Shown in pieces: positions 157 through 24,148 of a stretch of 32,000 nucleotides of DNA. Source of the DNA: Acaryochloris thomasi RCC1774 (lineage in GTDB: Bacteria > Cyanobacteriota > Cyanobacteriia > Thermosynechococcales > Thermosynechococcaceae); assembly GCF_003231495.1 (NCBI RefSeq), contig NZ_PQWO01000031.1:1-32000 (forward strand). The letters are read 5' to 3'. Under the pieces are notes generated by a model. The model ran no database searches. It was given only the letters and a program-made list of their open reading frames with translations, and had not been told where the DNA came from. Position 1 is the stretch's first letter, and each line of letters begins with the position of its first letter. The translations under genes and the position numbers were made by a program.

Positions 157-993
157 TTATAAAAAACGCTGAAACCCAAACAGACAGGAGTGTAAAGGGT
201 ATTTTTGAGAGTGCTGGTGAGAAATCCAGGTTATAGAGGTTGTTGCTTGCTCCGGTTTGGCAGGGTAATCAAACTCCAGCTTCCTATCCTTCAATCGATA
301 GGAGGCCCCATTGAGCTTGAGATACTCGCCATGATGGAGCGTTCGGTCAATGATGGCACGGGCTAATTCCTCATCATGAAGCACCCTGCCCCAGTGCTTG
401 AGTGGTTTATTGGTGGTGAATAGAATCGGCTTTCCCTTGAGATAGCGTTCATCAACGACCTGAAATAGGACATCAGCGGCCCCTGGTCCATATCCGAGAT
501 AGCCCATCTCATCAATGACCAAGACATGGGGCTGCAGGTAAGGCTTGAGTGCCGCATTGAGATCATGAGCGACTCTCAACTCATTAATGAGCGCAGCCGC
601 CGTCGTGAAACGGGCCATGAACCCGTTCTGAATCGCCTTGTAGGCAATAGCAATACAGATGTGAGTTTTCCCCGTTCCCGGTGGCCCCTCCAAAATTAGC
701 GATCGGTTTTCACTGATCAGCTCTGGCCCTAAGAATCGTCCAAGCATTTGTCGTTTGAGATCGCTTTTGAAGGTGAAGTCAAAGGTTTCAATGGTGGCAT
801 TGAAGGGAAACTTGGCACGGGTAACGTGGTTAGCAACCCGCCTTTCGCTGCGTTGGGCAATCTCCTCTGAGACTAGGCGTTCGAGGAAGTGTTGATAGGA
901 CCAAGCCTCCCGTTCTGCCGTCGGTGTCAGTTCTGGAAGAATCCGTTGAATCGTACTGAGACCCAGGCGCTTGAGCATCATGTCTAAACTCAT
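157..993 (-). CDS. istB: IS21-family helper ATPase IstB
   Basis: 278 aa. Walker A GPPGTGKTH and Walker B LVIDEMGY are present. It lies immediately downstream of, and translationally coupled to, the IstA-like ORF. Confidence 0.9.
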   Translation of the reverse strand: MSLDMMLKRLGLSTIQRILPELTPTAEREAWSYQHFLERLVSEEIAQRSERRVANHVTRAKFPFNATIETFDFTFKSDLKRQMLGRFLGPELISENRSLILEGPPGTGKTHICIAIAYKAIQNGFMARFTTAAALINELRVAHDLNAALKPYLQPHVLVIDEMGYLGYGPGAADVLFQVVDERYLKGKPILFTTNKPLKHWGRVLHDEELARAIIDRTLHHGEYLKLNGASYRLKDRKLEFDYPAKPEQATTSITWISHQHSQKYPLHSCLFGFQRFL

Positions 994-2441
994 GATTGTG
1001 CCCCCAACGCTTGGCTCAGAGCCAAAGGTGTGGCTCCAGCATGTTCAACGATCTCCAGCAAGTATTCACTGCCGAAGCAGTGCAACTCAATGGCTAATTC
1101 AATAGCCGCGAGCAGATCGCTGCGACCAATGCGTTGATAGAGCTGATAGGTGGCATCGACATCTTCCTCCCACGCCAGTGGCCGACGATGGACTAATTCA
1201 GTGAGATAGGACTCAACAATGGGAGCTAAGTCGAGCAGTAATTGACGTTGGGCATAGGGCTTGCCCCGTTTGATTTGGAACAGTTCTTCAGCATGTTCTG
1301 GCAGGACACTCGACTTGCCATTTTCCGGAAACCTCGGATGCTCTGCCAACAAACGGTCATCAAGATAGATCGCCACTTGCCTTTGCTGCAGATGCAGCGT
1401 CACTGTTTGACCAAGCGTTTCAGCAGGAACCGAATATTCTATTCCTCGGTAGTGAACCCGAGCCGTCGGGCGGACAACGACTGAGACCTTAAAGGCATAG
1501 CTCTGGGCTTGATGGTGCAATGGTTGGAGCGGCTCTCGCTTCAACCGCTCTGCGGGGATCTCGCCGGTGGCATCGCAGGGACGCTCGTCATTGACGTGAG
1601 CCATCCACTCTTGAAGTTGACCCTTGATATCGTCAACATCTTTAAAGGTCCGGCCACAGAAGAAGTTCCCTTTGACGAACCCGACTAAATTTTCCACTGA
1701 CCCTTTTTCTTGAGGACGATAGGGCCAGCAGGCTAAGGGAACCAATCCACAGTCAACGGTCAATTGACCAAAGCGCTCGGTCCAATAGACTTTGACGCTG
1801 CCGTCTTCTCGGATCTCACGCGACTTAACGGCAGTGGACATATTGTCGAATACGCCAATCATCGGCACTCCGCCAAAGTGCTCAAAGGCACTCAGCAGGG
1901 ACCGCACCACTGTTTCCTGTTGTTCGTTCTCGACAATCTCGATATCGACATAGCGAGAGTATTTCAGGCGACTGGCAAAAAAGCGGATCAGTTTACGAGT
2001 GCCGTCAGAAAACGTCACCCACCGTTGGCCGAAATCATGTTGGGAAAACTCGCCGGGTAGACCCTCAAAGCGAACAATAGGTCTGCCCTTGGTTTTAGGG
2101 CGGAGGCGTCTGACTAATTCATAGACAGCGGTCTTACCGCCGGTATAGCCCTGCTGGCGCAAGCAAGCTAGAATCTCTTGGCTTTTAATAGGACCGTCTT
2201 CCTTATGGCGAGGCTCTTCTAGGCATTGACGAATCTGGTCTTCATACTCGGTGACTCGGCTGGGACGACCCATATTATGGGATTTCCGGAAACTCTCCTT
2301 ATCAATCTCCTTGATTGGTTCTTCCGTTTCAATTCGGCTGATACTGCGCTCACTAATTCCGGTTAGCTCGCGCACCTCGCCTTGAGGCATATTCTGATCT
2401 CTAAGTTCTTGCACGACATATCGCTCCAATTGGCTGTACAT
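990..2441 (-). CDS. istA: IS21-family transposase IstA
   Basis: 483 aa. It has an N-terminal HTH region and a central DDE-type region (FDNMSTAV ... PYRPQEKGSVE). It is paired with istB. Confidence 0.85.
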   Translation of the reverse strand: MYSQLERYVVQELRDQNMPQGEVRELTGISERSISRIETEEPIKEIDKESFRKSHNMGRPSRVTEYEDQIRQCLEEPRHKEDGPIKSQEILACLRQQGYTGGKTAVYELVRRLRPKTKGRPIVRFEGLPGEFSQHDFGQRWVTFSDGTRKLIRFFASRLKYSRYVDIEIVENEQQETVVRSLLSAFEHFGGVPMIGVFDNMSTAVKSREIREDGSVKVYWTERFGQLTVDCGLVPLACWPYRPQEKGSVENLVGFVKGNFFCGRTFKDVDDIKGQLQEWMAHVNDERPCDATGEIPAERLKREPLQPLHHQAQSYAFKVSVVVRPTARVHYRGIEYSVPAETLGQTVTLHLQQRQVAIYLDDRLLAEHPRFPENGKSSVLPEHAEELFQIKRGKPYAQRQLLLDLAPIVESYLTELVHRRPLAWEEDVDATYQLYQRIGRSDLLAAIELAIELHCFGSEYLLEIVEHAGATPLALSQALGAQS

Positions 2442-5227: not shown

Positions 5228-6421
5228 TTAACTTTCTTTACCCTGACTAATACGCATCCACATCGGCAATTGCAGCTCTTTCCCTGCCTGAATACGTTCA
5301 ATCGCAGCCAGCAGTTCTACTCGCACATCAAATTCGCTCTCCAATTCAGCCGCCTGCAGCAAGGGAGACACAGCACTGGAATCTCCTAATTCATTCAGGA
5401 AACGACCCGCTCGCCATCTGACTAGAGCAGAAGAATCTTCCAACGCTTTAATCATTGCCTCATTGGCCTGAGTCTCTCCCAAATCACTGAGAGCATCTCC
5501 TGCTGTTCGTCGCACAATAGGTGAACGATCTGAAAGTACAACCTGACACAGCGGATGGACGGCTTCAGGGCGCTCGCTCGCACCCATGAGAGCCGCAGCC
5601 CAGCGACGAATTGTATTGCGCTCATCCTTCAGTGCAATAGTCACGGCTGAGAAGGTTTCAGAATTGACTTCAATCTGCTGAATCGCCTTGAGTCGTCTCT
5701 TCCAATCTGGCTGTCGAAGTTCTTCCATTAAAACCTGTTGGGACTTTTGAGCAATGGGCACTTCTCTCCCACGCTCTTGCTCAATCGCTGTTTTCTCAAT
5801 TGCAGCCAATTCCAGATCGTCAATCAGAATATCGAGTTCTTCTGCAACTTGTTGGGCAATCTCCTCTGGATTCCCGAATTGGGGTTGATACGGGGACCAG
5901 AGACGCTCTGCGACATAATCAGCATGGGTTGATTCAATCGTCCGCTGGAGAGCCTGACTAAACCGTTCTGGCAATGCGACACGAGCCCGACTACCATCCC
6001 CTGCAATCACACGAACTTGAACGGGAATGCCCCGAAAGACCTGAATAGCTACCTCGACCTGACCAAAATTCTGAGTCTGATGCTGCGCTGGGGAACCCTT
6101 ATTCACAGATGAGCTGGATTGTTGTTGAATAAGATGATTGCTTAAACTCGAATCAGCTTCCTCTGCAAGTCCGAGCAAGCTGCCTGCTTCTGACAAGATG
6201 GGTTGCCAATCTACGTTCCCTTTGCGCGTGAGGGTGATGAAGTCACCTATCAAGAAAACAGACTGTATTCCCTCTATCGCCAGCAAACTCTGAAAGACTT
6301 CTGGTGCATCCGTTAATTCACCATCTTTTTTAAGCGTCAAGGGCTTAGAGCCAATCTGCTCATCTAGATTTAGCTTCATGCAGTTTGGACTGGGTGTTGT
6401 CTCAATCGAGCGAAGTTTCAT
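5228..6421 (-). CDS. Nfu_N-domain / CvfC-YpgR-like 'virulence factor' family protein with C-terminal HEAT (PBS-lyase type) repeats
   Basis: 397 aa. The N-terminus MKLRSIETTPSPNCMKLNL...DFITLTRKGNVDWQPIL matches the Nfu/NifU N-terminal scaffold domain pattern. The central segment is VQVFRGIPVQVRV. The C-terminus has repeated HEAT-like units (RRWAAALMG, VRRTAGDALSDLG, VRWRAGRFLNELG). Confidence 0.65.
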   Translation of the reverse strand: MKLRSIETTPSPNCMKLNLDEQIGSKPLTLKKDGELTDAPEVFQSLLAIEGIQSVFLIGDFITLTRKGNVDWQPILSEAGSLLGLAEEADSSLSNHLIQQQSSSSVNKGSPAQHQTQNFGQVEVAIQVFRGIPVQVRVIAGDGSRARVALPERFSQALQRTIESTHADYVAERLWSPYQPQFGNPEEIAQQVAEELDILIDDLELAAIEKTAIEQERGREVPIAQKSQQVLMEELRQPDWKRRLKAIQQIEVNSETFSAVTIALKDERNTIRRWAAALMGASERPEAVHPLCQVVLSDRSPIVRRTAGDALSDLGETQANEAMIKALEDSSALVRWRAGRFLNELGDSSAVSPLLQAAELESEFDVRVELLAAIERIQAGKELQLPMWMRISQGKES

Positions 6422-10987: not shown

Positions 10988-12859
10988 GTGATTGAACAAC
11001 GGTTCTCAAAAGAAGCAATCACCCAAGCCAAGACGATCTCAACCCAACACCAACCCGATCTCACCCGCCCCCAAGTCCAAGGCATCACTATCGACGGCCC
11101 CACCTCCCTCGATCTCGATGACGCCATCTGGTGCGAAGAAACCGACACGGGCGCAACAATCCAAGTCCACATCAGCGACGTATCCGATCGCATCCCCCTC
11201 AACTCCCCATTAGACCAAAGCGCGATCGCAACCACCCAAACCCGCTACTACCGGCAGGGCAACACCCCCATGCTGCCGCGAGTCCTCAGCGAAAATGCAC
11301 TAAGTCTTCAAGAGGGCCAACCCAGAGCCACCCTAACGTTCGAGCTAGAGCTAGCCAATGACGGCACAGTCAGCAACTGCAAAATCTTCGAGTCCTACCT
11401 AATCAGCGCCAAACGCTTCAGCTACGCCCAGGCCGACTACGCCATAGCAAGTCCTAAACTCAGATGGCACAGCACGCTGAAGCTATGCCAGGAGTGGACC
11501 GCCAAGCTAAACCAGCAGCGGATGGCAACAGGGGCTATTGGAGCATCAGCTTTCGGCAAAAACATATACATCAATGAAGAAGGAAATCTATCCGATAATC
11601 CCAATGCGAAATACCACAGCCATCGCGTCATAGAAGAGTTTATGATTGCGGCCAACACCGCTGCGGCCCAATGGCTAGCCGACCGTGATCAACCGGCCCT
11701 CTATCGTAACCACACCGCAAAAGCGATCGCACCGGGCCAGGACGAGATGCTGCAGGCGTTGCTGGTGCTGGGGTCGGCCACCGCGATACGACGGCGGTTG
11801 CAGAGCTGGATGAATCGAGCAGAGTATAGCCCCGCACTCATTGGTCATTTTGCGCTGAATCTTCCGGCCTATGGTCACTTCACCTCGCCAATACGCCGGG
11901 TGGCTGACCTGATCAATCATCGGATCATCAAGGCGTTGCTGCGCGGGGAAGAGTCGCCCTACACAAAGCAAGATCTTGAGGAACTGGGGCGTCATATCAA
12001 TGAGACGGTTCTAGAAGATGAGCGGAAAACCACCACTTACTACAAAGACAAGGCCAAGCAAGGGCTGCAGGAAAAGCTGGAGTCGGAAGAAAGCTTTACT
12101 GAGCTGCCGGAGAAAGAATTTAGCCGGTTAATCAAACATGCTGAGGGAGAGCTGCCGGTAGCCCTGGCGGAGGAAGTGCGATCGCGGTTGGAGCAGGATC
12201 GGCTTGTTGTTTTGGATTACTACCTGCTGCTTATACAAGGTTGCGATTTGGAGCTGCAGGAATTGGTGTTGAAGCATCTGGAAGGGAAGGTGCAGGATGC
12301 GGCCAGCGTGTTGTCTATGGCAGTTACTCAGGAAGAATCCTGGGAAGGGCTGGAGTATACAGAGTTAGCTCAGGAGGGACGCTTTCTGGCCTGGGCCGAA
12401 GTATACGTCGATGGGGAGCTGCGGACTTCCGTGGAGGCGGGTTGCGATCTGCGTAAGCAGGTGGCGCGGCATCGGGCTTGTTGGCTTTGGCTTTCTGCGT
12501 TCGAGAGTGGGGAGCTGGTGGGGGTGGATGCGCGGGTTGTGCTAGAGCTGCCGGTGGTTGTCGCTGTTGAGCCGGTGGTGGATTTGAAGGAGGGGAAGTT
12601 GCGATCGCTGTTAGAGAAGCCGCTTCTTGATGGGCAGAATCATGTGGGGCGGTTGATCGAGATCTGTCAGGCGATGGGGTGGGAGTTACCCACCTTTGAG
12701 TTTGAAGATAGAGACGATGGTTTCTACTGCCGGTGCATCTGTGGCGGGGTTGTGGGGGATGCGATCTCGGGGAAGAAGAAATTGAGTAAGCAGAGGGCGG
12801 CGATGGGAGTGTTGCAGAAACTCCCTTACGCAGATTCAAAAGCCACCGGCTCATCGTGA
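10988..12859 (+). CDS. RNB-domain 3'-5' exoribonuclease (RNase II/R superfamily) lacking N-terminal cold-shock domains, with C-terminal dsRBD-like modules
   Basis: 623 aa with a GTG start preceded by GGAGG. RNB motif I is ITIDGPTSLDLDDAI at residues ~33-47. The RNB signature is HFALNLPAYGHFTSPIRRVADLINHR. The C-terminal end LIEICQAMGWELPTFEF...GKKKLSKQRAAMGVLQKL fits the dsRNA-binding motif pattern. Confidence 0.8.
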   Translation: MIEQRFSKEAITQAKTISTQHQPDLTRPQVQGITIDGPTSLDLDDAIWCEETDTGATIQVHISDVSDRIPLNSPLDQSAIATTQTRYYRQGNTPMLPRVLSENALSLQEGQPRATLTFELELANDGTVSNCKIFESYLISAKRFSYAQADYAIASPKLRWHSTLKLCQEWTAKLNQQRMATGAIGASAFGKNIYINEEGNLSDNPNAKYHSHRVIEEFMIAANTAAAQWLADRDQPALYRNHTAKAIAPGQDEMLQALLVLGSATAIRRRLQSWMNRAEYSPALIGHFALNLPAYGHFTSPIRRVADLINHRIIKALLRGEESPYTKQDLEELGRHINETVLEDERKTTTYYKDKAKQGLQEKLESEESFTELPEKEFSRLIKHAEGELPVALAEEVRSRLEQDRLVVLDYYLLLIQGCDLELQELVLKHLEGKVQDAASVLSMAVTQEESWEGLEYTELAQEGRFLAWAEVYVDGELRTSVEAGCDLRKQVARHRACWLWLSAFESGELVGVDARVVLELPVVVAVEPVVDLKEGKLRSLLEKPLLDGQNHVGRLIEICQAMGWELPTFEFEDRDDGFYCRCICGGVVGDAISGKKKLSKQRAAMGVLQKLPYADSKATGSS

Positions 12860-13057: not shown

Positions 13058-15733
13058 TTACAGCCAGTTACCAATCAAAATAAAAGCAGCCCAAAAGCAG
13101 GGATGCCTATACCCTTTACCGGATTTAATCAGACTCAATTGTGCGGCCTGCAGGGCTTGAGCTTTGCTGAATTGAGGGTTGTTTAGGGCTTGATAAAACT
13201 GCTCTGAAAATTCAGCCGTGGCTTGGTCGTCAATAAACCAAAGGGAGGCGAGAGTACTTCTAGCTCCAGCTTGAATAGCACTCCCCGCTAGCCCCAAAGC
13301 CGCTCGATTATCGCCCACCGCAGTTTGACAAGCGGAAAGCATAAGCAGATCAATGGCCCTTTGGGGGCTGTTTACCTCCCGGAGCAGTTGTTCAAAATCA
13401 CTTAATGTCAGCTTGCTATTGTTACCCAATACCAAGAAGGTATTTTCAGGCTCAGGGCTGAATCGGGCGTGGGTTGCAATATGAATGATGGGGTAGTTTC
13501 TCCGACTCAACTCTATATAGAGGCGCTCACGAGTAAACGCATCATTAATCAACTTCTTACTTCTCGGAAACTGCGCTTCAATGCGCTCGACTTCTGAGGC
13601 CACAAAATGCAGCGCTGGGAAATATTGATTATCCACTTGGGCCGCCTCAGTTAAGCCTAAAATCATTGCCTTTAGAGAAGAATGTTTCAGAGGTTGTGGA
13701 TCGATGAGGTGTAAAGAGGGAGTTGTAGCAATGGCAAAGCGCTCAATCAAAAACTGCTGGCCATCGAACAAAGCCGCCATGGGAACCGTTCGGAACAGGC
13801 CATCTTGAACAAAGACGAGGGTGTTAACCTGAGCTTCGGTCAATGCGGTCTCAAAGGGCTGAATCAGCCATTGATATAGCTGTTCTGCAGACTGACGATT
13901 GGTGTAGGGTCCTAGGTTGCGTTCAAGGCCAACTCGGTAGTCATTAATTGTATTTTGTAAAGTTGATTTAGATTCTTGAATCCAGGCCAGTTGCCGCTGG
14001 CCGTTGGGCAGGGTCAAAATAACAGCGCTGCGCTGCGGCAAGATAATGGTGCTGAGGGTTGCAGTTCCTGCAGGACCGACCTGCTCGACGGGGGTAGCCG
14101 GTAAGGCGGTGAGTGCACAATCATTGCCAAAGTAATTTTGCAATTCCGCTAGCTTGAGGGAGTCCAGGGTGTTGAGAGCCTTTGTCAGTTGCTGGGTCTG
14201 GGCTGGGGCGGGAATGGATTCTGCCCCATTTTGCTGTAGATAAAGGGTCACCAATTCTCGATAAAGGGGTTCGATATTGTCACGAAAGTCAAACTGCAGG
14301 TCGCGATTGGCATTTAATATGTCTCTACGAATTTTCCCTAAGGTTGAGACGGCTCGTTGGTAGAATTTGATGGACTCTTCTGTTTGTCCATGGGCATTTA
14401 GAATCCGTCCTGTTTGCCATTCCCAAAGATAAAGACTGTCATTGCTGTCCAAATCGGCTGCGATCCAGCGAGCCTTTTGCGTGATTCTCAGGGCTTGCCG
14501 ATGGTCCTGGCGACATTCGTACCAGTGGCCCAGTTCGCCCAATGCAAAAGATTTAGAGCGGCGATCGCCCACTTGCTCAGCTGTTTTTAGAGCCTGTTTG
14601 AGCAGACTTCGAGCTTGGGAAGCCGTCTCTTGGGGATAACACTGTGGCCCTTCAGAGGATAGGGCTGGGTCCACAACTGAGCGATAAAGATGGGCCAAAT
14701 CAATTGCGGCAAAAACGGCTTCTTGGCTGACAGGTAAGCGAGGAATGAGGTTGAGAGCCTTCTTTTTGGCGGGTTCTACTTTTGGGTGAAATGCATCTTT
14801 GCGCCTGTAAATCGGGATTATTCTCAGCAGGGTCTGAACACTCGTGAGGGGCTTATCCTGCTGTTGAGAAAGGGACAAGCTTTGTTTGAAATAGCTTAGG
14901 GCTTGAGTTTCATTGTCCTGAGCTTTTTGGTGCAGTGCCGTCACCTTCCGAATGTTACCCTCTTGTCGTGAGCTGAGGGGAGAGGTTTGGTTAAGACGGC
15001 TTGCTGTCACACTTTGATTCTCAGAGCGGGCCTGACGGTAGTCAACTTCAGCTTGTGCGAGATAGGCATTTGCCAAACTGCTGAGCATCACTGTTTGGTA
15101 GTTCGGCAGCTTCGATGCCAGGGCTAATCCCTCCTCTAGGGAATCAATGGCCTGTTGATGATCTCCACGAGCAAGATACGCATTACCGATGCTGCCTAAG
15201 GCTGCCGCTTCACCCGCTGAATCTTTAGCGTGACGTGCAATATCGATGGCGCTGCCAGCCTGACAGTCTGGGGTAGGGTTACAGAGCACAGCAATGGCGC
15301 GTCGATGCTGTCCTAATTGGCTATAGGCTTGGGCCTGTTCTGTCAGTATACGTCCGACTTTTTGTGTGTTGCCGAGCTGACGTTGCAGGAGAATCACCTG
15401 CTGCCAGTGTTGTAAGACTTGAGCCGTTTGCCCCAGGTGACGATGGGCACGGGCCAGGTTTTCAAGCACGATGGCATTGTTTGCCAGGTCCCGTTGGGTT
15501 TGATAAAAGGGCAAAGCAGCTTGCCAACGTTCGATGGCTCCTTGATAATCTCGACTCTGGTAGAGATCGTATCCTTGCTGCACAAGCTGGCCGGCATTGT
15601 TGTTGGCCGTGTTCGTAGATCGTTGCTGAGTCGGCGCCCCCTGTCCCCCATGCGCCCAAAGCAGACTGAGGATCAAACTGGTGAGAAAGAGAACCTTCAG
15701 CAGAGGACGCGTACAGATTTTGCTTATCATCAT
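13058..15733 (-). CDS. Exported TPR-repeat CHAT-domain (caspase-like) protease
   Basis: 891 aa. The N-terminal signal peptide is MMISKICTRPLLKVLFLTSLILSLLWAHG. It contains multiple TPR-like units. The C-terminal CHAT domain has a candidate His/Cys dyad: IIHIATHARF (H755, codon 13469-13471) and LSACQTA (C802, codon 13328-13330). The family-typical end is HPCFWAAFILIGNWL. Confidence 0.85.
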   Translation of the reverse strand: MMISKICTRPLLKVLFLTSLILSLLWAHGGQGAPTQQRSTNTANNNAGQLVQQGYDLYQSRDYQGAIERWQAALPFYQTQRDLANNAIVLENLARAHRHLGQTAQVLQHWQQVILLQRQLGNTQKVGRILTEQAQAYSQLGQHRRAIAVLCNPTPDCQAGSAIDIARHAKDSAGEAAALGSIGNAYLARGDHQQAIDSLEEGLALASKLPNYQTVMLSSLANAYLAQAEVDYRQARSENQSVTASRLNQTSPLSSRQEGNIRKVTALHQKAQDNETQALSYFKQSLSLSQQQDKPLTSVQTLLRIIPIYRRKDAFHPKVEPAKKKALNLIPRLPVSQEAVFAAIDLAHLYRSVVDPALSSEGPQCYPQETASQARSLLKQALKTAEQVGDRRSKSFALGELGHWYECRQDHRQALRITQKARWIAADLDSNDSLYLWEWQTGRILNAHGQTEESIKFYQRAVSTLGKIRRDILNANRDLQFDFRDNIEPLYRELVTLYLQQNGAESIPAPAQTQQLTKALNTLDSLKLAELQNYFGNDCALTALPATPVEQVGPAGTATLSTIILPQRSAVILTLPNGQRQLAWIQESKSTLQNTINDYRVGLERNLGPYTNRQSAEQLYQWLIQPFETALTEAQVNTLVFVQDGLFRTVPMAALFDGQQFLIERFAIATTPSLHLIDPQPLKHSSLKAMILGLTEAAQVDNQYFPALHFVASEVERIEAQFPRSKKLINDAFTRERLYIELSRRNYPIIHIATHARFSPEPENTFLVLGNNSKLTLSDFEQLLREVNSPQRAIDLLMLSACQTAVGDNRAALGLAGSAIQAGARSTLASLWFIDDQATAEFSEQFYQALNNPQFSKAQALQAAQLSLIKSGKGYRHPCFWAAFILIGNWL

Positions 15734-15739
15734 GAACCT

Positions 15740-17479
15740 CTACAGGGGCTGATATTGCAAAGAGAAGTAGAAGCCTTGCTCCTGGAGGGAGTTACCCCGA
15801 TCATCAAGGTCCACTATGGGCAAGCCGTAGTCGAAACGTAGGCTCAGATCTGGGATTGGCTGCCAGCGGAGTCCGACACCGATGCCCACTAACGCAGATG
15901 GAGAGGGATCGGCACCAAAGTTGTTCCAACCTTTCCCGGCGTCAATGAAGGGCGATAGCTGCAAAACATTGGGGTTCGACGTCAGCGGAAACTGGCATTC
16001 CACCGTACCGAGGATGCCGTTATCGGTGAGGAGTTGATTGGAAGCGTAGCCCCGCACGGAACTAATTCCACCAATGCCAAACCGTTCTTGATTGAGCAGG
16101 GAATCGGGCGTCAGTTGGGTGCTGAGGCGACTGATGAGTAAAGCCCTTAAGGGTAACCGCTGCACATATTGAGCTTGTCCGACCCAGGAGAAGAAATTTG
16201 CGGATGGCCCCTCTACATTGACAGTGGCGTCGAAGACATCCACGCCCAAGTTGAATTGGGAACGAAGGGCAACAACGTTTCGGGGTTGCCGCTGAGTCCA
16301 TTCCTGTGAGAAGCGCAGCACTCGTGTTTTAGCGATTCCATCCGCATCAGGGCCTTGTGAAAATGGGAAAGGTTGATCTGCTAAAAAACTCTGATTCTGT
16401 TGCAGGTCAAAGGAGAGCCCCAGCGCAATCTCGGTGTTAGGAGTTTTGACAACCGGTTGTCGTAGCTCAAGGGACAGGCTTTCAAAGTCATTGCTGATAT
16501 CTAGAGGTCTGAGTTCAGAGGCAACAATTTCACTCGCGGCGTTACTGTATCTGACACCAATCGTACCGTCTCGGGCATTGATGGGCACAGTGTAGCCAAG
16601 GTCGTAAAGATTAAGTCCAGCGGTGATTGAAGTAGCGGCGGTGATGCGATCGCCCAATCCTAAGAAATTATCGTGAGCAAGATTGAGGCTACCTTGAATA
16701 GAGCCAATGGCTGGGCTGCGATAGTTATCGATACTGGCCCCCACATGGAATTCTCGGGCTTGTTCGACATTAACCAGTAAGGTGTTTAGACCGGGTGAAC
16801 TGCCGACGGTTAGTTCAGCATTCACACGCTTCAGGAGAGGATTTAGCTGCAGGAGCTGTAGTTTTTTCTCCAGCTCAGCTTGGTTTAAGGGGACTTTCGC
16901 GGCTGGGGAAATGCGGCGGCGAACATACTTTTTTCGCAGACGTTTGAGACCGATAATCTGAATTTCTTCGAGTTGTCCTTCAACAACTTGAATTTGAATG
17001 ATGCCATCACTGAGGTTTTGGTTGCTGGGAAGGAAGGCTCCGGAGGTAATGTAGCCGTTGTCGTTATAGAGTTTAGCGATCCGAGTGCGGAGGTCTAGGA
17101 GTTGTTCTAGGGTAACCGTTTGATTCTCCAGGGCTTGGACTTCAGCTTCAATTTCTTCTTGAAGTACCGTTGCACCAAGCACTTCGATGGTCTCAACAAA
17201 GAAGCTTGCTTCAGGTACCTCTGGTGATGAGGACTCTATTGGGGATGAAGGGGATATTGATTTAGGTAGGATCGGGGTGGTGGGTTTTGGAGCTGTGGGC
17301 AAGTCAATGGGGTTTGGGTCAATAGGTCTAACGGGGGGCAGGCTTTCTAGACTATTGGGTAGCGGGTTTGTTTGGCTCCAGACTGGGGCCAGCACGGGCG
17401 TTAAGGTCAAAAGGCTGGCTGTGAACAACAGGCTGCTCAAGCCAAGCTTTCGTGTTTTTTGGGTTGCTGAGCAGGGCAT
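15740..17479 (-). CDS. ShlB/FhaC/HecB-family two-partner-secretion outer-membrane transporter (TpsB, POTRA plus beta-barrel)
   Basis: 579 aa. It has a signal peptide, a Pro-rich linker, a POTRA-like region (IEVLGATVL...LLDLRTRIAKLYNDNGYITSGAFLP) and a beta-barrel ending FYFSLQYQPL. It starts 97 bp downstream of the TpsA gene, and its stop lies 6 bp upstream of the CHAT gene start. Confidence 0.85.
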   Translation of the reverse strand: MPCSATQKTRKLGLSSLLFTASLLTLTPVLAPVWSQTNPLPNSLESLPPVRPIDPNPIDLPTAPKPTTPILPKSISPSSPIESSSPEVPEASFFVETIEVLGATVLQEEIEAEVQALENQTVTLEQLLDLRTRIAKLYNDNGYITSGAFLPSNQNLSDGIIQIQVVEGQLEEIQIIGLKRLRKKYVRRRISPAAKVPLNQAELEKKLQLLQLNPLLKRVNAELTVGSSPGLNTLLVNVEQAREFHVGASIDNYRSPAIGSIQGSLNLAHDNFLGLGDRITAATSITAGLNLYDLGYTVPINARDGTIGVRYSNAASEIVASELRPLDISNDFESLSLELRQPVVKTPNTEIALGLSFDLQQNQSFLADQPFPFSQGPDADGIAKTRVLRFSQEWTQRQPRNVVALRSQFNLGVDVFDATVNVEGPSANFFSWVGQAQYVQRLPLRALLISRLSTQLTPDSLLNQERFGIGGISSVRGYASNQLLTDNGILGTVECQFPLTSNPNVLQLSPFIDAGKGWNNFGADPSPSALVGIGVGLRWQPIPDLSLRFDYGLPIVDLDDRGNSLQEQGFYFSLQYQPL

Positions 17480-17576
17480 AGAAGACTTCAGTTGGCTTGC
17501 TGCTAGGGAGTTTGTGGATTAATGAGAGACGTTTACCTGGGGGTCAGAATGAGGGGCCTCAGACTGATGAACAACA

Positions 17577-20435
17577 TTATTTGGAGCACTCTCGGCTGAT
17601 GACCAGTTTGCCGTCTGGCAGACGATACACGCTTTCGGGTTCAATGATGGGATCGCCGATTTGCCAGGGGGGATTGCCGTGCACTGGGGCCGTGTTTTTG
17701 TTAGTGGGGATAGTTTGGACGGTGCCGGTGGGAAGGGAGGGAGCGGCAGGGTGACCAGGGCGGGCGCGCAGGCTATCTGAACCGGTGATTATGAAGTTGC
17801 CTTGGGCGTTATTGGTGCGGACGATACAGCTATTAGCGAGCAGATCATTGGTATCGACTAGATTATCAGGGAGTTCTGTAAGGCTTTCTTCAATGGTGCT
17901 GTTATCTGGGGTGGTGATGATACCGGCAGAGATCTCGCCAGAAGCATTGATATCGACCCTGCCATTGCCATCTAGGTTGGTAAAGTTGACGATGTTGGGA
18001 GTGAAGGTGAAACTCTCGCCGATAAAGATAGGGGTGTTGAGCTCAATATTGCCACCACGACCATCTTGGGAAAAGGCGAGGATGTCACTATCACCGAAGG
18101 CAATGATGTATTTACCCGCTGATAAGGCAATATTCCCACCATCGCCAGTGCCTCTGACATCGGTCAAAATATTGCTGTTGTCAAGACGGATGGTGTTGGT
18201 GGCAGTGATACCAATCGTACCTCCAGTGGCTTGGCTTGCAGAAGTAGTGATACTGCTGTTCGACGCTTTGAGTAAGTTATGTAGATTGAGAGTGATATTG
18301 CCTGAATCAGCTTCCCCCTCAGAACTAGCACTAATTGCAGCTTGATCCTCTAGGGTCAGAGTATCCGCAGATACTTCGATGTTTCCCCCCACACCATTTG
18401 TTCCCTCTTCCGCACCGACTGAGATAAGACTATTTTCACCAGAAAGAGAAATTTCATCTTCTACAAAAATGGTGATAGCTCCTGCTGAACTGTTGCTGCC
18501 AGTAAGTGACGAGATTTTGCTACCATCCACTACAGAGAGTGTACTGGCCTCAATAAAGATTGTTCCAGCATTTCCTTCACCAAAAGTGCTAGCAGATAGT
18601 TGAGCCCCATCTTTGAGAACAAGTGACTGAGTTTTAACATTTACTTCACCCGCATTGCCTTGTCCCCGAGAGTTATTCTCACTGACGACTCCACTCCCCG
18701 CTAAGTTATTCAAACCCTCAAACAAGATAGATTCATTGGCAATTACTCTGACTGTTCCAGCATTGCCTCGACCAAAGGTGCTAGCAGAGAGGAAAGCCCC
18801 ATCCTTGAGTATAAGAGACTTGGTCTCTAGCTCTACTTCACCCGCATTTCCGCGTCCGCTAGTGTCTGAGGCTCTTGCTGCTGCGGCTCTACTTGCCCGC
18901 CCTAAGCTATCTTCTCCTTCAAACAAGACAGATTCATTGGCATATATTTTGACGGTGCCAGCGTCTCTTCCTCCGTTCGTACTAGCAGATAAAATTGCTC
19001 CATTTCTGAGAACAAGTGACTGGGTGGTAATATTAACCTCACCTGGATTCCCTTGCTCATCAGACGTTGTCTCACTAGTGACAGTGGCGCCACTTGGCGT
19101 AGGGCCCTCTGGTGTTTGATTACCATCTTCTCCCTCGAACAAAACAGATTCACTTGCGCGTACTGTTACTGTCCCAGCATTCCCTTCACCAAAAGCATTA
19201 GCCGATAGTTGAGCCCCATCTTTGAGAACAAGTGACTGGGTTTTAATATTGACTGCGCCTGCGTTTCCTTGTCCGACAGGACCAACTACGCTGGCTGCTC
19301 GACTTCCCCGTCCTTGACTATCCAACCCTTCGAGTAATACTGACTCAACAGCCTGTATTTTGACCGTGCCAGCATTGCCTCTACCAAAGGTGCTAGCAGA
19401 GAGAAAAGCTCCATTCTTAACTGTAAGAGAGTTGGCCACTACCTCCACTACACCAGCATTTCCCTGAGTACCAGGCAACACTGCGCTAGCGACTCTGGTA
19501 TTTTCTCCCTCAAGCAATACATAATCGCTTGCCTGTATTCTGACAGTGCCAGCATCCCGCTGACCAAAGTTACTCGCTTCTACTCGAGCCCCATCTGCTA
19601 GATCCACTTGATTCGCCACCAACGTTACAGACCCACCAGGTGCAACGATAGATCCTGTCTGTATAAGACTATCCCCTACCAGTCCCACAGATTGCAGCTC
19701 ATCAACCATCAAATTTCCCTCATTGATAATAGAGCCAGACTGCTGGGCTGCTTGCTCAAAAAATGAAGCCGCAGGACTCACCGACAGCAATTGACTCTGC
19801 CCTGGCTCTATTGCACTGAAAACCCCTTGTTCGCCTAGCTCGATCTCATCTGCAGTAGAGGCATAAAATGACCCCGCCAATTGCAAATCTGTATTGGGTC
19901 CAAACAAAAATCCATTGGGATTTAACAACCATAGATTGGCATCCCCTAAAACCCCCAACTGACCCAAAATATTGGAGGAATTACTGCCCGTCACCCGAGA
20001 AAGAATGTTACTTATACCTGTGGGATTCGCAAAGAAGACTCCGCGCCCTTCCCCAACATTGAATTCCTGAAAACTATGGAACAGGTTCCCACCGCGAACA
20101 GCACCACCCACAATCCGATCTGACTGACCATCAATTGGCGTCACAAAAGAGCTTTCGACTTGCAATGTTTGATCTGGCCTAACCTGTGCTCTAGCCTGAA
20201 GATTGCACACAGTGGTCATCACTGTCATAAACATCACAGCTCCACTGAATGTCCATAAGCATTGTTGAAACAGCCCTCCCTTGATCACCAAACCACTTTC
20301 ATTCACATAGGAAAGACTAAATCTTAATGGTCTACTTTTCTTAACTGAAACAGCCCAAATCTTGGAAGGCAGTATTTTCATTAGACTTCTTGCAATATCA
20401 TCATGCTGTGCTGTGTCGTACTGACCTATTCTCAC
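17577..20435 (-). CDS. Filamentous-hemagglutinin-N-terminal (TPS) domain exoprotein, beta-helical repeat protein (TpsA)
   Basis: Up to 952 aa. The TPS secretion domain is NPTGISNILSRVTG...LWLLNPNGFLFGPN. There are at least 11 GNAGTV/GNAGEV beta-helix units. The Cys-flanked C-terminal tail is NSCIVRT...DPIIEPESVYRLPDGKLVISREC. The start is uncertain: GTG at 20435 or ATG at 20381 (MKILPSK). Confidence 0.85.
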   Translation of the reverse strand: MRIGQYDTAQHDDIARSLMKILPSKIWAVSVKKSRPLRFSLSYVNESGLVIKGGLFQQCLWTFSGAVMFMTVMTTVCNLQARAQVRPDQTLQVESSFVTPIDGQSDRIVGGAVRGGNLFHSFQEFNVGEGRGVFFANPTGISNILSRVTGSNSSNILGQLGVLGDANLWLLNPNGFLFGPNTDLQLAGSFYASTADEIELGEQGVFSAIEPGQSQLLSVSPAASFFEQAAQQSGSIINEGNLMVDELQSVGLVGDSLIQTGSIVAPGGSVTLVANQVDLADGARVEASNFGQRDAGTVRIQASDYVLLEGENTRVASAVLPGTQGNAGVVEVVANSLTVKNGAFLSASTFGRGNAGTVKIQAVESVLLEGLDSQGRGSRAASVVGPVGQGNAGAVNIKTQSLVLKDGAQLSANAFGEGNAGTVTVRASESVLFEGEDGNQTPEGPTPSGATVTSETTSDEQGNPGEVNITTQSLVLRNGAILSASTNGGRDAGTVKIYANESVLFEGEDSLGRASRAAAARASDTSGRGNAGEVELETKSLILKDGAFLSASTFGRGNAGTVRVIANESILFEGLNNLAGSGVVSENNSRGQGNAGEVNVKTQSLVLKDGAQLSASTFGEGNAGTIFIEASTLSVVDGSKISSLTGSNSSAGAITIFVEDEISLSGENSLISVGAEEGTNGVGGNIEVSADTLTLEDQAAISASSEGEADSGNITLNLHNLLKASNSSITTSASQATGGTIGITATNTIRLDNSNILTDVRGTGDGGNIALSAGKYIIAFGDSDILAFSQDGRGGNIELNTPIFIGESFTFTPNIVNFTNLDGNGRVDINASGEISAGIITTPDNSTIEESLTELPDNLVDTNDLLANSCIVRTNNAQGNFIITGSDSLRARPGHPAAPSLPTGTVQTIPTNKNTAPVHGNPPWQIGDPIIEPESVYRLPDGKLVISRECSK
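18540..19460 (-). repeat. Intragenic higher-order DNA repeats within the TpsA gene (period about 610 bp)
   Basis: An exact 35-nt match GATAGTTGAGCCCCATCTTTGAGAACAAGTGACTG occurs at 18595-18629 and 19204-19238, with about 85-90% identity in the flanks. A second pair starts at 18757 and 19369 (CCAGCATTGCCTC.ACCAAAGGTGCTAGCAGAGAG). A third, more diverged copy lies near 18990-19040. Confidence 0.8.
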
Positions 20436-20608: not shown

Positions 20609-21747
20609 AATCCATAAATAATCTACCTTCCACTATGTCTGAGCCTGGTTCTAACGGAATCTGGGGTCTATCAGAATATGTACCTACTTTGGTCTTCAAG
20701 GATCTGATGCTTCTTTCACTGTAGAGTCTTTTAGCACTCTCTCAGCGAAGGAAAATATAGCAAGCATGGCAGCCTCAACTCGCGGAGATCACACGATCTG
20801 TCTACCCTTCGACAATGAAACTCAATATCGTGAGCTTGTGCAAGATGCTCTGGGCTTCAGACTCCATCTGAGTCAGACTTTGACTACTCACCCGGAACTA
20901 TTCCCTAAAGAGATGGAGGCAGGCTTTCGGTTCCATGATTTCATCTACTCCTTCAAACAAGATCTGACCCTGCGTCGCATCAAGCTGACTGCCACTGGAG
21001 ACATCTATCAGCTCCGACCGGATTTCATGATGCCCTACATGGTCGGTAAGACCCATGAAATGGAGAAAGCCCTTTACCTGTGCCGGTTTGCGGTTCCCTT
21101 CGATGCCATCGTCTATGTCTTAGGCCGCAACGCAATGTACTGGTATCGGGCTTACATCTCTCTGGGACGGCCTTCCATTGTCGGAACGACGATCAAAGAT
21201 CTCAAGCTGCTACCAAGAAACCTGGTTGTCGATGAAAAACATAGCTGGCTCAAAGGAGAGAAAGTCTTTCTACCCACCACTGTCGCCAACGGTTGTATCC
21301 TAGGTGTTAGTGTCACAGATTCAGCAAGTCCGAAAGCTCTGACAGAAGGCTGTCGCGAGTTTCACCAAGAAGCACTGAACCTAGATCCGGCCTATGCTCC
21401 CCACACTGTTAATCATGACGGCTGGCCCGCGACACAGACAGCAATGAAAGCGATCTTCCCCACCGTAACCTTGATCCTGTGCTTTCTCCATTCGGTGTTG
21501 AAGATACAAAAAAGCTGTCGTCGGACGCCAGAGATCTGGAAGCGCCTGACAGGAATGCTTTGGGCCGCGTATAAGCAACCCAATAAGACTCGATTTCAGA
21601 AGGGGTTGCGTCAATTACAAAAATGGACCAAAGAGAATGTCACTTCCCCGCACCTCCGCATATAAGTGTTCAAGGCCTGTCGTAAGGCGACGAAGTTTAA
21701 GGTGGCCTATGCCTATCCAAAAGCCTACCGAACCAGTAACGAAGTAG

Positions 21748-22942
21748 CAGGGTTATTTCATTCTAAATAAAGTGACGAGAACATCCAGCCCTTGTCCAGC
21801 TCTTCGTTGTGCCTGTGCCATATTGTCAAAGTCATTGTGACGATACAGGTTGAGCGCCAAATTACGTGCTAGAGCAAAGATGTTGGGTAGTGGCTGTACC
21901 CGTATTCGAGAATTGTCCTCGCCCTGAGTAACATCTCGAACATGATGGACCTTATTCTCCACATGCCAATAGTCCCGAATGCGTCGTGAAAATTGTTGAG
22001 CTGTTTCCTCTAGGGAGCTGATGTAATAGCGAGTTGTGGGCTTGTTGATGATCAGATATTTTCCTTTGAGCAGATGACGATAGCTAACGACTCGAATAAT
22101 AGTCTTCAGTCCAGCCCATTGCTGTGCCTCTGAAAAGAGTTCAATCGAACGGCAGATACTGACGCTGCGCCGTTCAACGCGACCATGTCCTCTCTCAACG
22201 CTGTCAACGCGCTCTTGGGGCTGAAAGTGCCGCTTGATGGCTTTGAAGAAGTTACCGTGATTACCTTTGACTGCTCCTAAATAGTGATTGCCTGAATCAA
22301 TGATTGCCTGACATGTTTTTTTGGGTGTTGAGCGCATCAAAAGCAAAGACGACGCCCCGTTGCGCTAAAGCCTGCAGCACAGGCGGAAAGGCTGTTATTT
22401 CATTGCTTTTCTTGTCCACTGGTTGAATCGGCAAAATCAGGCCGCGTTCGACGATATACACGGTGACCAATTGAATGGCCCGATGTGATTCACTCGTACT
22501 CGCCGGAGTCTCTACATTGTAAGAACCGCGCAACACCTTCCCCTCAAATGCTAGTGTTTCGCCAGACAATGGTTCAATCTCAAAGAAGCTGGCTAGACAA
22601 GCACTATAGGCTTTGTAATCGAGGTCTAACAACACTCGACGAATGGTGCTGTAGGACGGAAGCCGGTCTTTGGCTGGCTCAAATAAGGCCAACAGGTCGG
22701 CTCGATAGCTTTTAAGCCAATCACTGATGGCGATAAAGCCACGACAGCCTGCAGTAACCGATAGGGTGAACAAGGCTAAGCACAGAGGCTGGTTATGGCG
22801 ACGACCGGCTCCGCGACGGTGGTCGGGTAAATCTTTGAAGGCATCTATGATGGCTAAGGTGCTCATGGTTAAAGGAAAATTCGTCCACAACACCATGACT
22901 ATAAAGCCAGCTCATGAACTTGGCTAGAATGAAATAACCCTG
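21748..22942 (-). mobile_element. ISAs1-family insertion sequence (1195 bp)
   Basis: Perfect 18-bp inverted repeats: CAGGGTTATTTCATTCTA at 21748-21765 and its reverse complement at 22925-22942. It is flanked by the 10-bp direct target duplication AACGAAGTAG (21738-21747 and 22943-22952). Confidence 0.9.
21753..22896 (-). pseudogene. ISAs1-family (H-repeat-associated type) transposase split by a frameshift in a homopolymer
   Basis: The ORFs 22297-22896 (N-terminal, DLPDHRRGAGRRH motif) and 21753-22346 (C-terminal) overlap by 50 nt. The frame change maps to the A7 run (T7 on the plus strand, 22316-22322). The reading switches from DALNTQKNMSGNH* to ..TPKKTCQAIIDSGNHYLGAVKGN. Confidence 0.75.
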
Positions 22943-23312: not shown

Positions 23313-23624
23313 TCAACTTGTTACTGATTCTACTTCAATATGCTTGAAGCTATTGAGAATAGATTCTGAATCGTAATTTTCGATGCCATGATATTCTCCT
23401 TGTCGATTTGGCACCCCCACCTCAATCCTCCCCCCATAGAAGCGATCACCCTGCGACTCCAAGCAAAACCCTCCGAACAACAGCCCCAGCCACAATCGTC
23501 CCAAAGATAACCCCAAGCCTTCCTGCAGCTCAACTAAAGACACCTGTTGAACATCATCATCCAGATACGCCCGGATCGCATCGACCCAATCCACCACGCC
23601 CTCTAATCCACTATTGCTCGACAA
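23313..23624 (-). CDS. Small protein paralogous to the C-terminal domain of the 213-aa acidic protein
   Basis: About 92-103 aa. WVDAIRAYL...LSLGRLWLGLLFGGFCLESQGDRFYGG aligns with WVDAIAKVL...LSIGRLWLGLLLGGFDLQQVGEFYSF of ORF 24149-24790. The start is uncertain: TTG at 23624, or GTG about 23594-23597 after GAGGG. Confidence 0.6.
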   Translation of the reverse strand: MSSNSGLEGVVDWVDAIRAYLDDDVQQVSLVELQEGLGLSLGRLWLGLLFGGFCLESQGDRFYGGRIEVGVPNRQGEYHGIENYDSESILNSFKHIEVESVTS

Positions 23625-24148
23625 ACCTCTAGACGCATGAACAATGGCTCTCGAATTCCAGCTTCATTTGTATTCATCGCTGGCAGATGACCAACAGGAG
23701 ACGAGTCCTCAAAGGATAATTGATGGTACAAAAGAATCTTTCCATCTTTCATCCACCCGACACGCTCACGAAAGGTGCGATAGCTTTTGTAGTCAAAGGT
23801 TCCGTCAATGGTGTTACCTGTTTCAACATATAGTCGCTTCTGAACAGTAAACCCAAACCGTCCTTGGCTGTGGGTCGCCCACATCTGTTCGATTCTATTT
23901 AGATCTTTGCAAGGAAAGCTCTCGAACTTCACTCTCGATAGGTAACCGTTGGGCGAAAGAAATCCACCGGAACGCCTTGGACCCACCTTATAAAATAGTT
24001 GCTTGGTCAACTGGTCAGCCTGACGCCAGTTACCACTGGCTAGATGCTTCTCTAATTGCTGATATTCAGGTTCATAGCGATTGCAGCCCCATATTCCCAA
24101 ACTCAAGAGTAGGATAAACGACAATCCATGACGATAGGGCCAATTCAC
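23603..24148 (-). CDS. GUN4-like domain protein, probable lipoprotein
   Basis: 181 aa. The signal/lipobox-like N-terminus is MNWPYRHGLSFILLLSLGIWGC. The GUN4-type pattern is GNWRQADQLT...FPCKDLNRIEQMWATHSQGRFGFTVQ. The GTG start directly abuts the stop of the upstream gene. Confidence 0.7.
   Translation of the reverse strand: MNWPYRHGLSFILLLSLGIWGCNRYEPEYQQLEKHLASGNWRQADQLTKQLFYKVGPRRSGGFLSPNGYLSRVKFESFPCKDLNRIEQMWATHSQGRFGFTVQKRLYVETGNTIDGTFDYKSYRTFRERVGWMKDGKILLYHQLSFEDSSPVGHLPAMNTNEAGIREPLFMRLEVCRAIVD

Follow-up and report, generated by a model that had tools for sequence, protein, structure and literature searches.

In Pseudomonas aeruginosa, the two-partner secretion (TPS) exoprotein CdrA, a TpsA that forms a beta-rich fibre, is anchored in its transporter CdrB through a cysteine hook at the C-terminus, and the periplasmic cysteine protease LapG cuts CdrA's C-terminal retention module so that the adhesin is shed, a step that is controlled by c-di-GMP (cyclic dimeric GMP) via LapD. 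The idea of a periplasmic cysteine protease with a TpsA's C-terminal tail as its target is already established. A review of TPS treats these systems as two-gene units and states that TPS operons do not seem to contain the genes for maturation proteases. For proteins that combine tetratricopeptide repeats (TPR) with a caspase-like CHAT domain, DdvA of Myxococcus is the only characterised periplasmic representative, with neither its signal nor its substrate known, and Craspase, which is cytoplasmic, RNA-guided and bound to Cas7-11, is the one bacterial CHAT protease with known physiological substrates. Here, we describe a three-gene unit of Acaryochloris thomasi RCC1774, located in a 32-kb window (the whole stretch of DNA that was analysed), in which the genes for a TpsA, its transporter TpsB and a TPR-CHAT protein with a predicted export signal follow each other on the minus strand. 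The system differs from the known ones in the protease family, the tail module of TpsA, the genetic linkage, and the DUF928 and CHASE2 genes that are associated with it in other genomes. Taken together, our data suggest an undescribed protease-controlled anchoring or release system in many cyanobacteria.

This suggestion is carried by gene linkage. A scan seeded with the CHAT protein, using one genome per species, yielded 506 genomic stretches with a CHAT relative, and in the best 80 of these, all of them cyanobacterial, neighbours were counted by clustering all open reading frames (ORFs). A TpsA-family gene was found in 54 of the 80 loci, and where at least 8 kb were available on each side of CHAT, a TPS gene was present in 30 of 36 cases. 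The same link is seen from the opposite direction: 15 metagenome loci that were 12 kb or longer and seeded with the TpsA tail described below contained CHAT in 12 cases, DUF928 in 12, TpsB in ten and a CHASE2 kinase in nine. The preliminary description had proposed a gene-neighbourhood census of CHAT beside TPS genes, and the linkage indeed recurs in both search directions across cyanobacteria, so that synteny reaches far beyond this genome.

The arrangement of the genes is less uniform than their company. In the commonest layout (36/80 loci, median gap 693 bp) TpsA is divergent from CHAT, and the DUF928, kinase and regulator genes are convergent and downstream of CHAT; convergent and co-oriented layouts of TpsA and CHAT occur as well. 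The linkage survives such rearrangements and is seen across cyanobacterial orders, which points to proximity being selected for. TpsB was present in 12 of the 80 loci, and it directly follows a tail-bearing TpsA in only 15 of 69 testable cases, so the robust link is the one between TpsA and CHAT and not between CHAT and the whole TPS pair. TpsB is often encoded away from the locus, and the co-oriented order TpsA-TpsB-CHAT is lineage-specific; the unit is therefore not "hard-wired" as had been claimed. Several loci carry two or three tail-bearing TpsA genes by one CHAT gene, as would be expected if a single enzyme served several substrates with a common recognition module. The variable layouts, intergenic gaps of up to several kb and the frequent lack of TpsB at the locus could also be accommodated if TPR-CHAT were a periplasmic chaperone or quality-control factor, or acted on another envelope substrate, with its adjacency to TPS genes resulting from shared regulation or block inheritance. 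The persistence of the linkage through many rearrangements and across orders, the recovery of CHAT in most of the tail-seeded loci and the invariant catalytic dyad described below render this explanation quite unlikely.

Five pairs of loci represent genomes with two separate CHAT loci (L025/L028, L032/L059, L018/L074, L053/L080 and L045/L067). In the first three pairs, the CHAT proteins and tails within a pair are not mutually nearest, which suggests old paralogous systems, possibly with cognate specificity. In a minority of the loci, TpsA and CHAT have between or beside them genes for an S8 subtilisin-like protease and a repeat-rich protein (RTX-like as judged by eye), which recur and may be further accessory components. 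Of the two gene clusters concerned, c13 was found at L026, L030, L037, L039, L040, L052 and L057, and cluster c7 at L004, L012, L027, L048, L060, L078 and others.

The CHAT domain of the A. thomasi protein is clearly assigned (Pfam PF12770, E=1.6e-62) and lies behind TPR families. Its candidate catalytic residues, His755 in an HIATHA motif and Cys802 in LSACQT, are invariant across 25 aligned homologues with 46-78% identity; the dyad is thus intact, as first described, and was lost in none of these orthologues. As far as conservation can tell, this argues for an active protease. Five further cysteines of the mature protein are invariant in the same alignment, which fits an oxidising compartment. 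Altogether, 860 homologues were found at E<=1e-10, and over 100 of these are full-length, 45-54% identical and distributed over many cyanobacterial genera. At the N-terminus, nearly all of the 25 aligned homologues show, by eye, a basic stretch followed by ~15-17 hydrophobic residues, which we read as an export signal; it would be a Sec signal that is cleaved or else a signal anchor. Of the "clear signal peptide" reported before, the conserved charged and hydrophobic N-terminus stands, while it could also be read as an uncleaved membrane anchor. In the AlphaFold2 (AF2) model (predicted local distance difference test, pLDDT, 81.6; predicted template modelling score 0.74) residues 5-29 form a helix and residues 29-45 are disordered, and the all-helical TPR region behind them is proposed as the substrate-binding region.

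Foldseek matched this model to DdvA, Craspase Csx29 and separase (E 1e-12 to 1e-17), whereas sequence searches detected no solved CHAT structure and the CHAT profile matched only TPR proteins. DdvA is the best structural match (E ~1e-16) and, judged from the models, a similar extracytoplasmic TPR-CHAT protein with a His-Cys dyad and a hydrophobic helix plus flexible linker in front. The global template modelling (TM) score of 0.28 indicates that the relative arrangement of the domains differs. In contrast to DdvA, the A. thomasi protein has no zinc-binding anti-sigma domain, only ~10 residues before the hydrophobic segment and no adjacent gene for a sigma factor of the extracytoplasmic function (ECF) type, and its family resides in a TPS, DUF928 and CHASE2 neighbourhood instead of a phage-defence regulon. 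Csx29 shares the TPR-CHAT architecture and fold (E ~1e-15, target-normalised TM 0.5-0.56), but sequence-level similarity is not detectable and the A. thomasi protein carries an export signal. The comparison with Craspase that had been drawn earlier therefore holds for the fold and for nothing beyond it, and DdvA matches better. Membership in a Craspase or CRISPR system was rejected on account of this export signal and the lack of cas-like genes: Cas, Csx30 and Csx31 were absent from the 18 of 29 large window ORFs scanned with Pfam, a scan that did not include CRISPR repeats. PADLOC returned only a generic TPR match for the three cluster proteins and thus gives no support for a defence system.

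The second conserved element is the C-terminus of TpsA. The Cys-bracketed tail (NSC...SREC) noted in the preliminary description is present, but it is a conserved module and not a mere lack of a domain. The protein ends in ...ANSC870...SREC950SK, and its last 112 residues are 42-59% identical to the C-termini of TpsA genes beside CHAT homologues elsewhere. A word-indexed homology search with this 112-aa tail gave only six short fragments, and an exhaustive profile search against 1.84 billion representative proteins was used instead, which matched 1,635 protein clusters at E<=1e-3 and 574 at E<=1e-30. In all of the best 150 of the 1,635 matches the module is located at the extreme C-terminus. 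The carriers range from 386 to 2255 aa, and 36 of 45 have a Pfam TPS domain; the conserved ends of TpsA are accordingly the TPS domain and the tail, with a middle part that differs in length. The consensus reads L.ANSCI.R....G.F.ITG.GGLP.RPGD, followed by a variable linker and W..GDPI.EP.G.Y.L.NG.LVLSREC, and C870, C950, W924, E932, P893 and G885 show no variation among 45 tail-bearing proteins, so that in sequence two invariant cysteines bracket ~80 residues at the very end of TpsA. No match to the module was found in Pfam, NCBIfam or PDB sequences. Residues 845-952 have an AF2 pLDDT below 50 and are predicted to be unstructured on their own. A tail that is strongly conserved yet not independently folded is expected of a partner-binding or pore-threading element and typical of a segment that folds on its partner. 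Some TpsA proteins beside CHAT carry a second, related tail subtype that ends in ...EA(T/Q)GW....G.V.LTA.C and not in ...EPQGVYRL.NG.LVLSREC (L002 13737-18137, L004 10815-13841, L027 16440-20084, L077 14092-16440).

A pair of linked TPS genes with a small set of extra genes also recalls contact-dependent inhibition (CDI; CdiA/CdiB/CdiI). This assignment was rejected: the C-terminus of the A. thomasi type is conserved across hundreds of proteins and not polymorphic, no toxin domain is found, and tpsA is followed by tpsB and CHAT with no candidate immunity gene after it.

Conserved C-terminal modules on many paralogous cargoes, frequently accompanied by one neighbouring clan CD enzyme, are the genomic signature of sorting signals and their sorting enzymes, and clan CD includes PorU of type IX secretion, GPI8 and legumain, which carry out sorting or transpeptidase-type reactions. 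By analogy, CHAT could remove the tail and covalently join TpsA to lipopolysaccharide, exopolysaccharide or an S-layer component. We know of no CHAT protein with transpeptidase activity. Genes related to an acceptor are not conserved in the cluster, a tail of ~108 residues with a cysteine pair suits a plug better than a cleaved sorting signal, and the CHAT proteins treated in the DdvA paper are hydrolytic or uncharacterised; a covalent transfer of this kind therefore appears very unlikely.

An additional cluster of genes accompanies CHAT in most relatives: a secreted DUF928 protein (43/80 loci), a CHASE2 histidine kinase (32/80) and a LuxR-type response regulator (29/80), which occur in fixed order beside CHAT (for example L029 12762-17179 and L132 12661-16165). 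Often a fourth protein of ~245 aa without Pfam match, c9, belongs to this module. To our knowledge, neither a function nor a ligand has been described for DUF928, CHASE2 or c9. The one paper that we found to mention DUF928 reports a cluster of CHASE2, DUF928 and WD40 genes. The frequency and fixed order of these genes raise the possibility that TPR-CHAT is mainly a periplasmic sensor or protease of an envelope signalling pathway that includes DUF928, the CHASE2 kinase and the regulator. In that case the tail of TpsA would be an activating ligand or a readout of the state of the fibre (load, binding or stalled secretion), and the protein cut by CHAT would be DUF928, the CHASE2 kinase (in its CHASE2 domain) or CHAT itself. 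The loci L067, L072 and L075, which have genes of the DUF928/CHASE2/regulator type and CHAT but no TpsA, are in line with such a role, as is the resemblance to DdvA, a signal-transducing anti-sigma factor that is thought to cut itself and shares the hydrophobic helix and flexible linker before TPR-CHAT. The A. thomasi locus would on this account be a remnant without its signalling half; however, its three genes are intact and tpsB and CHAT are apparently translationally coupled, although DUF928, CHASE2 and regulator genes are missing from the window. Moreover, the CHAT protein lacks a cytoplasmic anti-sigma domain, there is no adjacent sigma factor gene, and the conserved tail with invariant cysteines on the C-terminus of every partner TpsA would be left without explanation. 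We therefore regard a primary signalling function as rather unlikely.

The reading that we prefer, with a probability of roughly 40%, is the protease-controlled anchoring and release of a type Vb surface fibre, in which a disulfide-locked tail holds the fibre in TpsB and periplasmic CHAT cuts the tail. TpsA would leave the cytoplasm via Sec, and TpsB would recognise the TPS domain and thread TpsA across the outer membrane, where it would fold into a beta-helix fibre. The last ~108 residues would remain in the periplasm as an intrinsically unstructured tail, and a loop closed by a Cys870-Cys950 disulfide would exceed the TpsB pore and tether the fibre like the cysteine hook of CdrA. TPR-CHAT would either be a soluble periplasmic protein or have an anchor in the inner membrane. 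As extended peptides are bound by TPR arrays, the TPR scaffold could bind the extended tail, while the His755/Cys802 site would cut it, whereby the fibre would be matured or released, or stalled precursors cleared. In most cyanobacteria, the DUF928 protein, the CHASE2 kinase and the LuxR-type regulator would probably control or report the cutting of the tail.

This proposal is by analogy closest to CdrA/CdrB, since in A. thomasi, too, TpsA ends in a conserved tail with a pair of invariant cysteines, and a nearby gene codes for an exported cysteine protease. The protease, however, is a CHAT protein of the caspase fold (clan CD) with a TPR scaffold and not a LapG, and instead of LapD or another c-di-GMP receptor, the regulator of the relatives, where present, is a CHASE2 two-component system with DUF928. 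Neither a LapG-family protease nor LapD was found by Pfam in the 18 of 29 large window ORFs or in the four neighbour families (DUF928, CHASE2 kinase, regulator and c9). In contrast to CdrA, there is no conserved TAAG-like site, as the tail consensus contains no conserved AA motif that could correspond to the TAAG-type di-alanine cleavage site. A second likeness concerns Bordetella FhaB/FhaC, where the C-terminal part of the TpsA precursor is removed in regulated steps by dedicated proteases (SphB1, DegP) and FhaB is reported at ~370 kDa, mature FHA at ~250 kDa. The prodomain of FhaB is large, as opposed to a tail of ~108 residues here; the proteases are a subtilisin autotransporter and DegP and are encoded elsewhere. 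Linkage of the CHAT gene to TPS genes thus sets it apart from the known TPS maturation proteases. The statement that no characterised example exists is accordingly valid for CHAT, but not for the concept, given CdrA/LapG and the processing of FhaB by SphB1. The proposal of CHAT as a dedicated third component gains from the conserved CHAT-TPS link and from the same gene order in the closest relative, whereas the processing of TpsA is something we infer.

Several points weigh against tail cutting as the function. About one sixth of the CHAT loci with full flanks have no TPS gene within 10 kb, and DUF928 and CHASE2 accompany CHAT at about the same frequency as TpsA does, so that TpsA need not be the substrate. 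The distances between CHAT proteins correlate with those between the neighbouring tails (Mantel r=0.61; permutations reached at most 0.24), which is consistent with inheritance as a unit, but the correlation is confounded by species phylogeny and whole-locus inheritance, and block inheritance of the locus can produce such a signal also if CHAT does not act as a protease or acts on an unrelated substrate. A shallow alignment (32 sequences) may be part of the reason for the low pLDDT of the tail, and the export signal of CHAT was assessed by eye. Finally, no conserved candidate cleavage motif can be assigned in the tail, and the specificity of CHAT proteases is not predictable.

If the TpsA-linked protease and the tail act together, the locus offers a compact genetic model for the tethering and release of type Vb fibres, with the tail as an obvious candidate substrate for a bacterial CHAT protease. 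With 506 genomic stretches containing a CHAT relative and 1,635 clusters containing the tail, the system is frequent, and it probably matters for the adhesion of cyanobacteria, for the formation of mats or sheaths or for contact between cells; the cluster also ties DUF928 and CHASE2 to a concrete envelope process. A more far-reaching version, which we consider unlikely, is an envelope circuit in filamentous and other large-genome cyanobacteria, in which CHAT cuts the disulfide-locked fibre tail and couples the state of the fibre to transcription via DUF928 and CHASE2, or else serves as a sorting transpeptidase. If true, such a circuit would amount to outside-in proteolytic surface sensing or to regulated shedding, and it would for the first time place CHASE2 and DUF928 in a pathway or give them a ligand, and supply a first extracytoplasmic substrate for a bacterial CHAT protease. 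Our literature search, which left most subscription journals outside and may have missed earlier comparative-genomics notes, found no description of the cluster and no paper that links CHAT in a pertinent way with two-partner secretion, hemagglutinin or CHASE2.

Within the window, the ORF calls reproduce exactly the three co-oriented genes, their coordinates (Table 1) and the gaps of 97 bp (tpsA/tpsB) and 6 bp (tpsB/CHAT) given in the preliminary description. The identities proposed for TpsA and TpsB were likewise supported. TpsA matches the TPS domain families PF05860 (E=2.8e-39) and TIGR01901 (NCBIfam), and its AF2 model (pLDDT 79.5), in which the TPS domain and the beta-helix are confident up to about residue 844, has EtpA, HxuA, HMW1, FHA and HpmA as its nearest solved folds. 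Neither Pfam nor NCBIfam matched a toxin or adhesin domain in TpsA, in agreement with the absence of such an end noted at the outset. TpsB matches ShlB (PF03865, E=5.7e-29), POTRA_2 (E=1.9e-17) and Omp85, and consists of a signal peptide, POTRA domains (residues 93-168) and the ShlB barrel (234-579) with VRGY at 475. The hallmarks of two-partner secretion are thus present, namely a TPS domain with NPNG-type motifs and an Omp85-family TpsB with POTRA and VRGY. A Pro-rich linker of ~55 residues (TpsB ~37-92; 17204-17370, minus strand) lies between the signal peptide and the first POTRA. In the databases, the CHAT protein corresponds to C1752_10372 of A. thomasi RCC1774 (100% identity) and TpsA to C1752_10374. 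Where tpsA starts is ambiguous. Its database entry (P0148, 885 aa) begins at Met68 (20234), which leaves a signal peptide without charged n-region; GTG Val50 (20288) or ATG Met19 (20381) gives a more conventional leader, and one of these two is, judged from the sequence, probably the true start.

Table 1. Features of the tpsA-tpsB-CHAT unit in the A. thomasi RCC1774 window
Feature	Coordinates	Strand	Description
tpsA	17577..20435	-	952 aa counted from first GTG; TPS domain, beta-helix repeats and Cys-bracketed tail
TPS secretion domain of TpsA	19524..20189	-	residues 83-304; NPTG at 137, NPNG at 172
TpsA beta-helix repeat region	17904..19523	-	residues 305-844; strands in AF2 model, high pLDDT to ~844
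TpsA tail module	17580..17903	-	residues 845-952 (~108 aa), conserved TpsA C-terminus
Cys870, first invariant tail cysteine (ANSC)	17826..17828	-	codon checked
Cys950, second invariant tail cysteine (SREC)	17586..17588	-	three residues from C-terminus; codon checked
tpsB	15740..17479	-	579 aa; Omp85-type transporter (Pfam ShlB, POTRA_2, Omp85)
tpsB/CHAT junction	15734..15745	-	tpsB TAG stop inside GAGG-like ribosome-binding site; ctgTAGAGGTTCATGATG
TPR-CHAT gene	13058..15733	-	891 aa; predicted exported caspase-like cysteine protease
N-terminal export signal of CHAT protein (predicted)	15635..15733	-	residues 1-33; charged n-region and 17-residue hydrophobic helix
TPR/helical-repeat scaffold	14129..15598	-	residues 46-535; TPR Pfam and PDB TPR matches, all-helical AF2 model
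CHAT catalytic domain	13067..13894	-	residues 614-889; His755 13469-13471, Cys802 13328-13330; codons checked

At the junction of tpsB and CHAT, the GAGG-like site that shares the tpsB stop codon ends 4 nt before the CHAT ATG, and this overlap suggests translational coupling. No terminator-like site was found in either gap by promoter and terminator scans, whose counts were at chance level overall and hence are uninformative on co-transcription; on the basis of the gene arrangement, co-transcription of tpsA-tpsB-CHAT is plausible. The CHAT protease had also been suggested to be a second cargo, which would be secreted through TpsB; the short distance of 6 bp 3' of tpsB and the export signal would fit this. 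Pfam and NCBIfam find no TPS domain in the CHAT protein, which TpsB would need for recognition, its model is compact, helical and alpha/beta in place of a beta-helix, and in most genomes CHAT does not lie beside tpsB. Based on these data, secretion through TpsB is extremely unlikely.

The closest relative of the A. thomasi locus is L132, whose CHAT protein is 78% identical. There, the genes for TpsA (2,255 aa), TpsB and CHAT share a strand and are separated by 92 and 12 bp, and convergent DUF928, CHASE2 and regulator genes come after CHAT. Nucleotide homology between the window and L132 (blastn) extends over the parts that encode the TPS domain and the C-terminus of TpsA and over tpsB and CHAT, and ends at the CHAT stop codon; the repeat region of the A. 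thomasi TpsA is ~4 kb shorter. Searches with the DUF928, CHASE2 kinase and response regulator families (tblastn) found nothing in the 32-kb window, and the A. thomasi locus thus represents a minimal three-gene version.

The genes that flank the three-gene unit are unrelated to it, with a convergent RNase II/R-like gene and then recA downstream of CHAT and transposase fragments upstream of tpsA. The latter comprise remnants at 20766-21665 (+), 21753-22346 (-) and 22297-22896 (-), namely one weak IS256-like fragment and one DDE_Tnp_1 transposase in two overlapping ORFs that is probably frameshifted; these remnants may be linked to the rearranged, minimal state of the locus. An IS21-type element is located at 157-2441 (-), with IstB at 157-993 and an IstA-like integrase/transposase at 990-2441. 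In the RNase II/R-like gene (10988-12859, +), the RNB match starts near the N-terminus and a double-stranded-RNA-binding motif is found at the C-terminus of the product; the GC content of this region (0.56) is above that of its surroundings, and the skews are stronger as well. Further genes unrelated to the unit encode a GUN4-like protein (23603-24148, -) and a protein that combines Nfu_N, a "Virulence_fact" domain and HEAT repeats (5228-6421, -).

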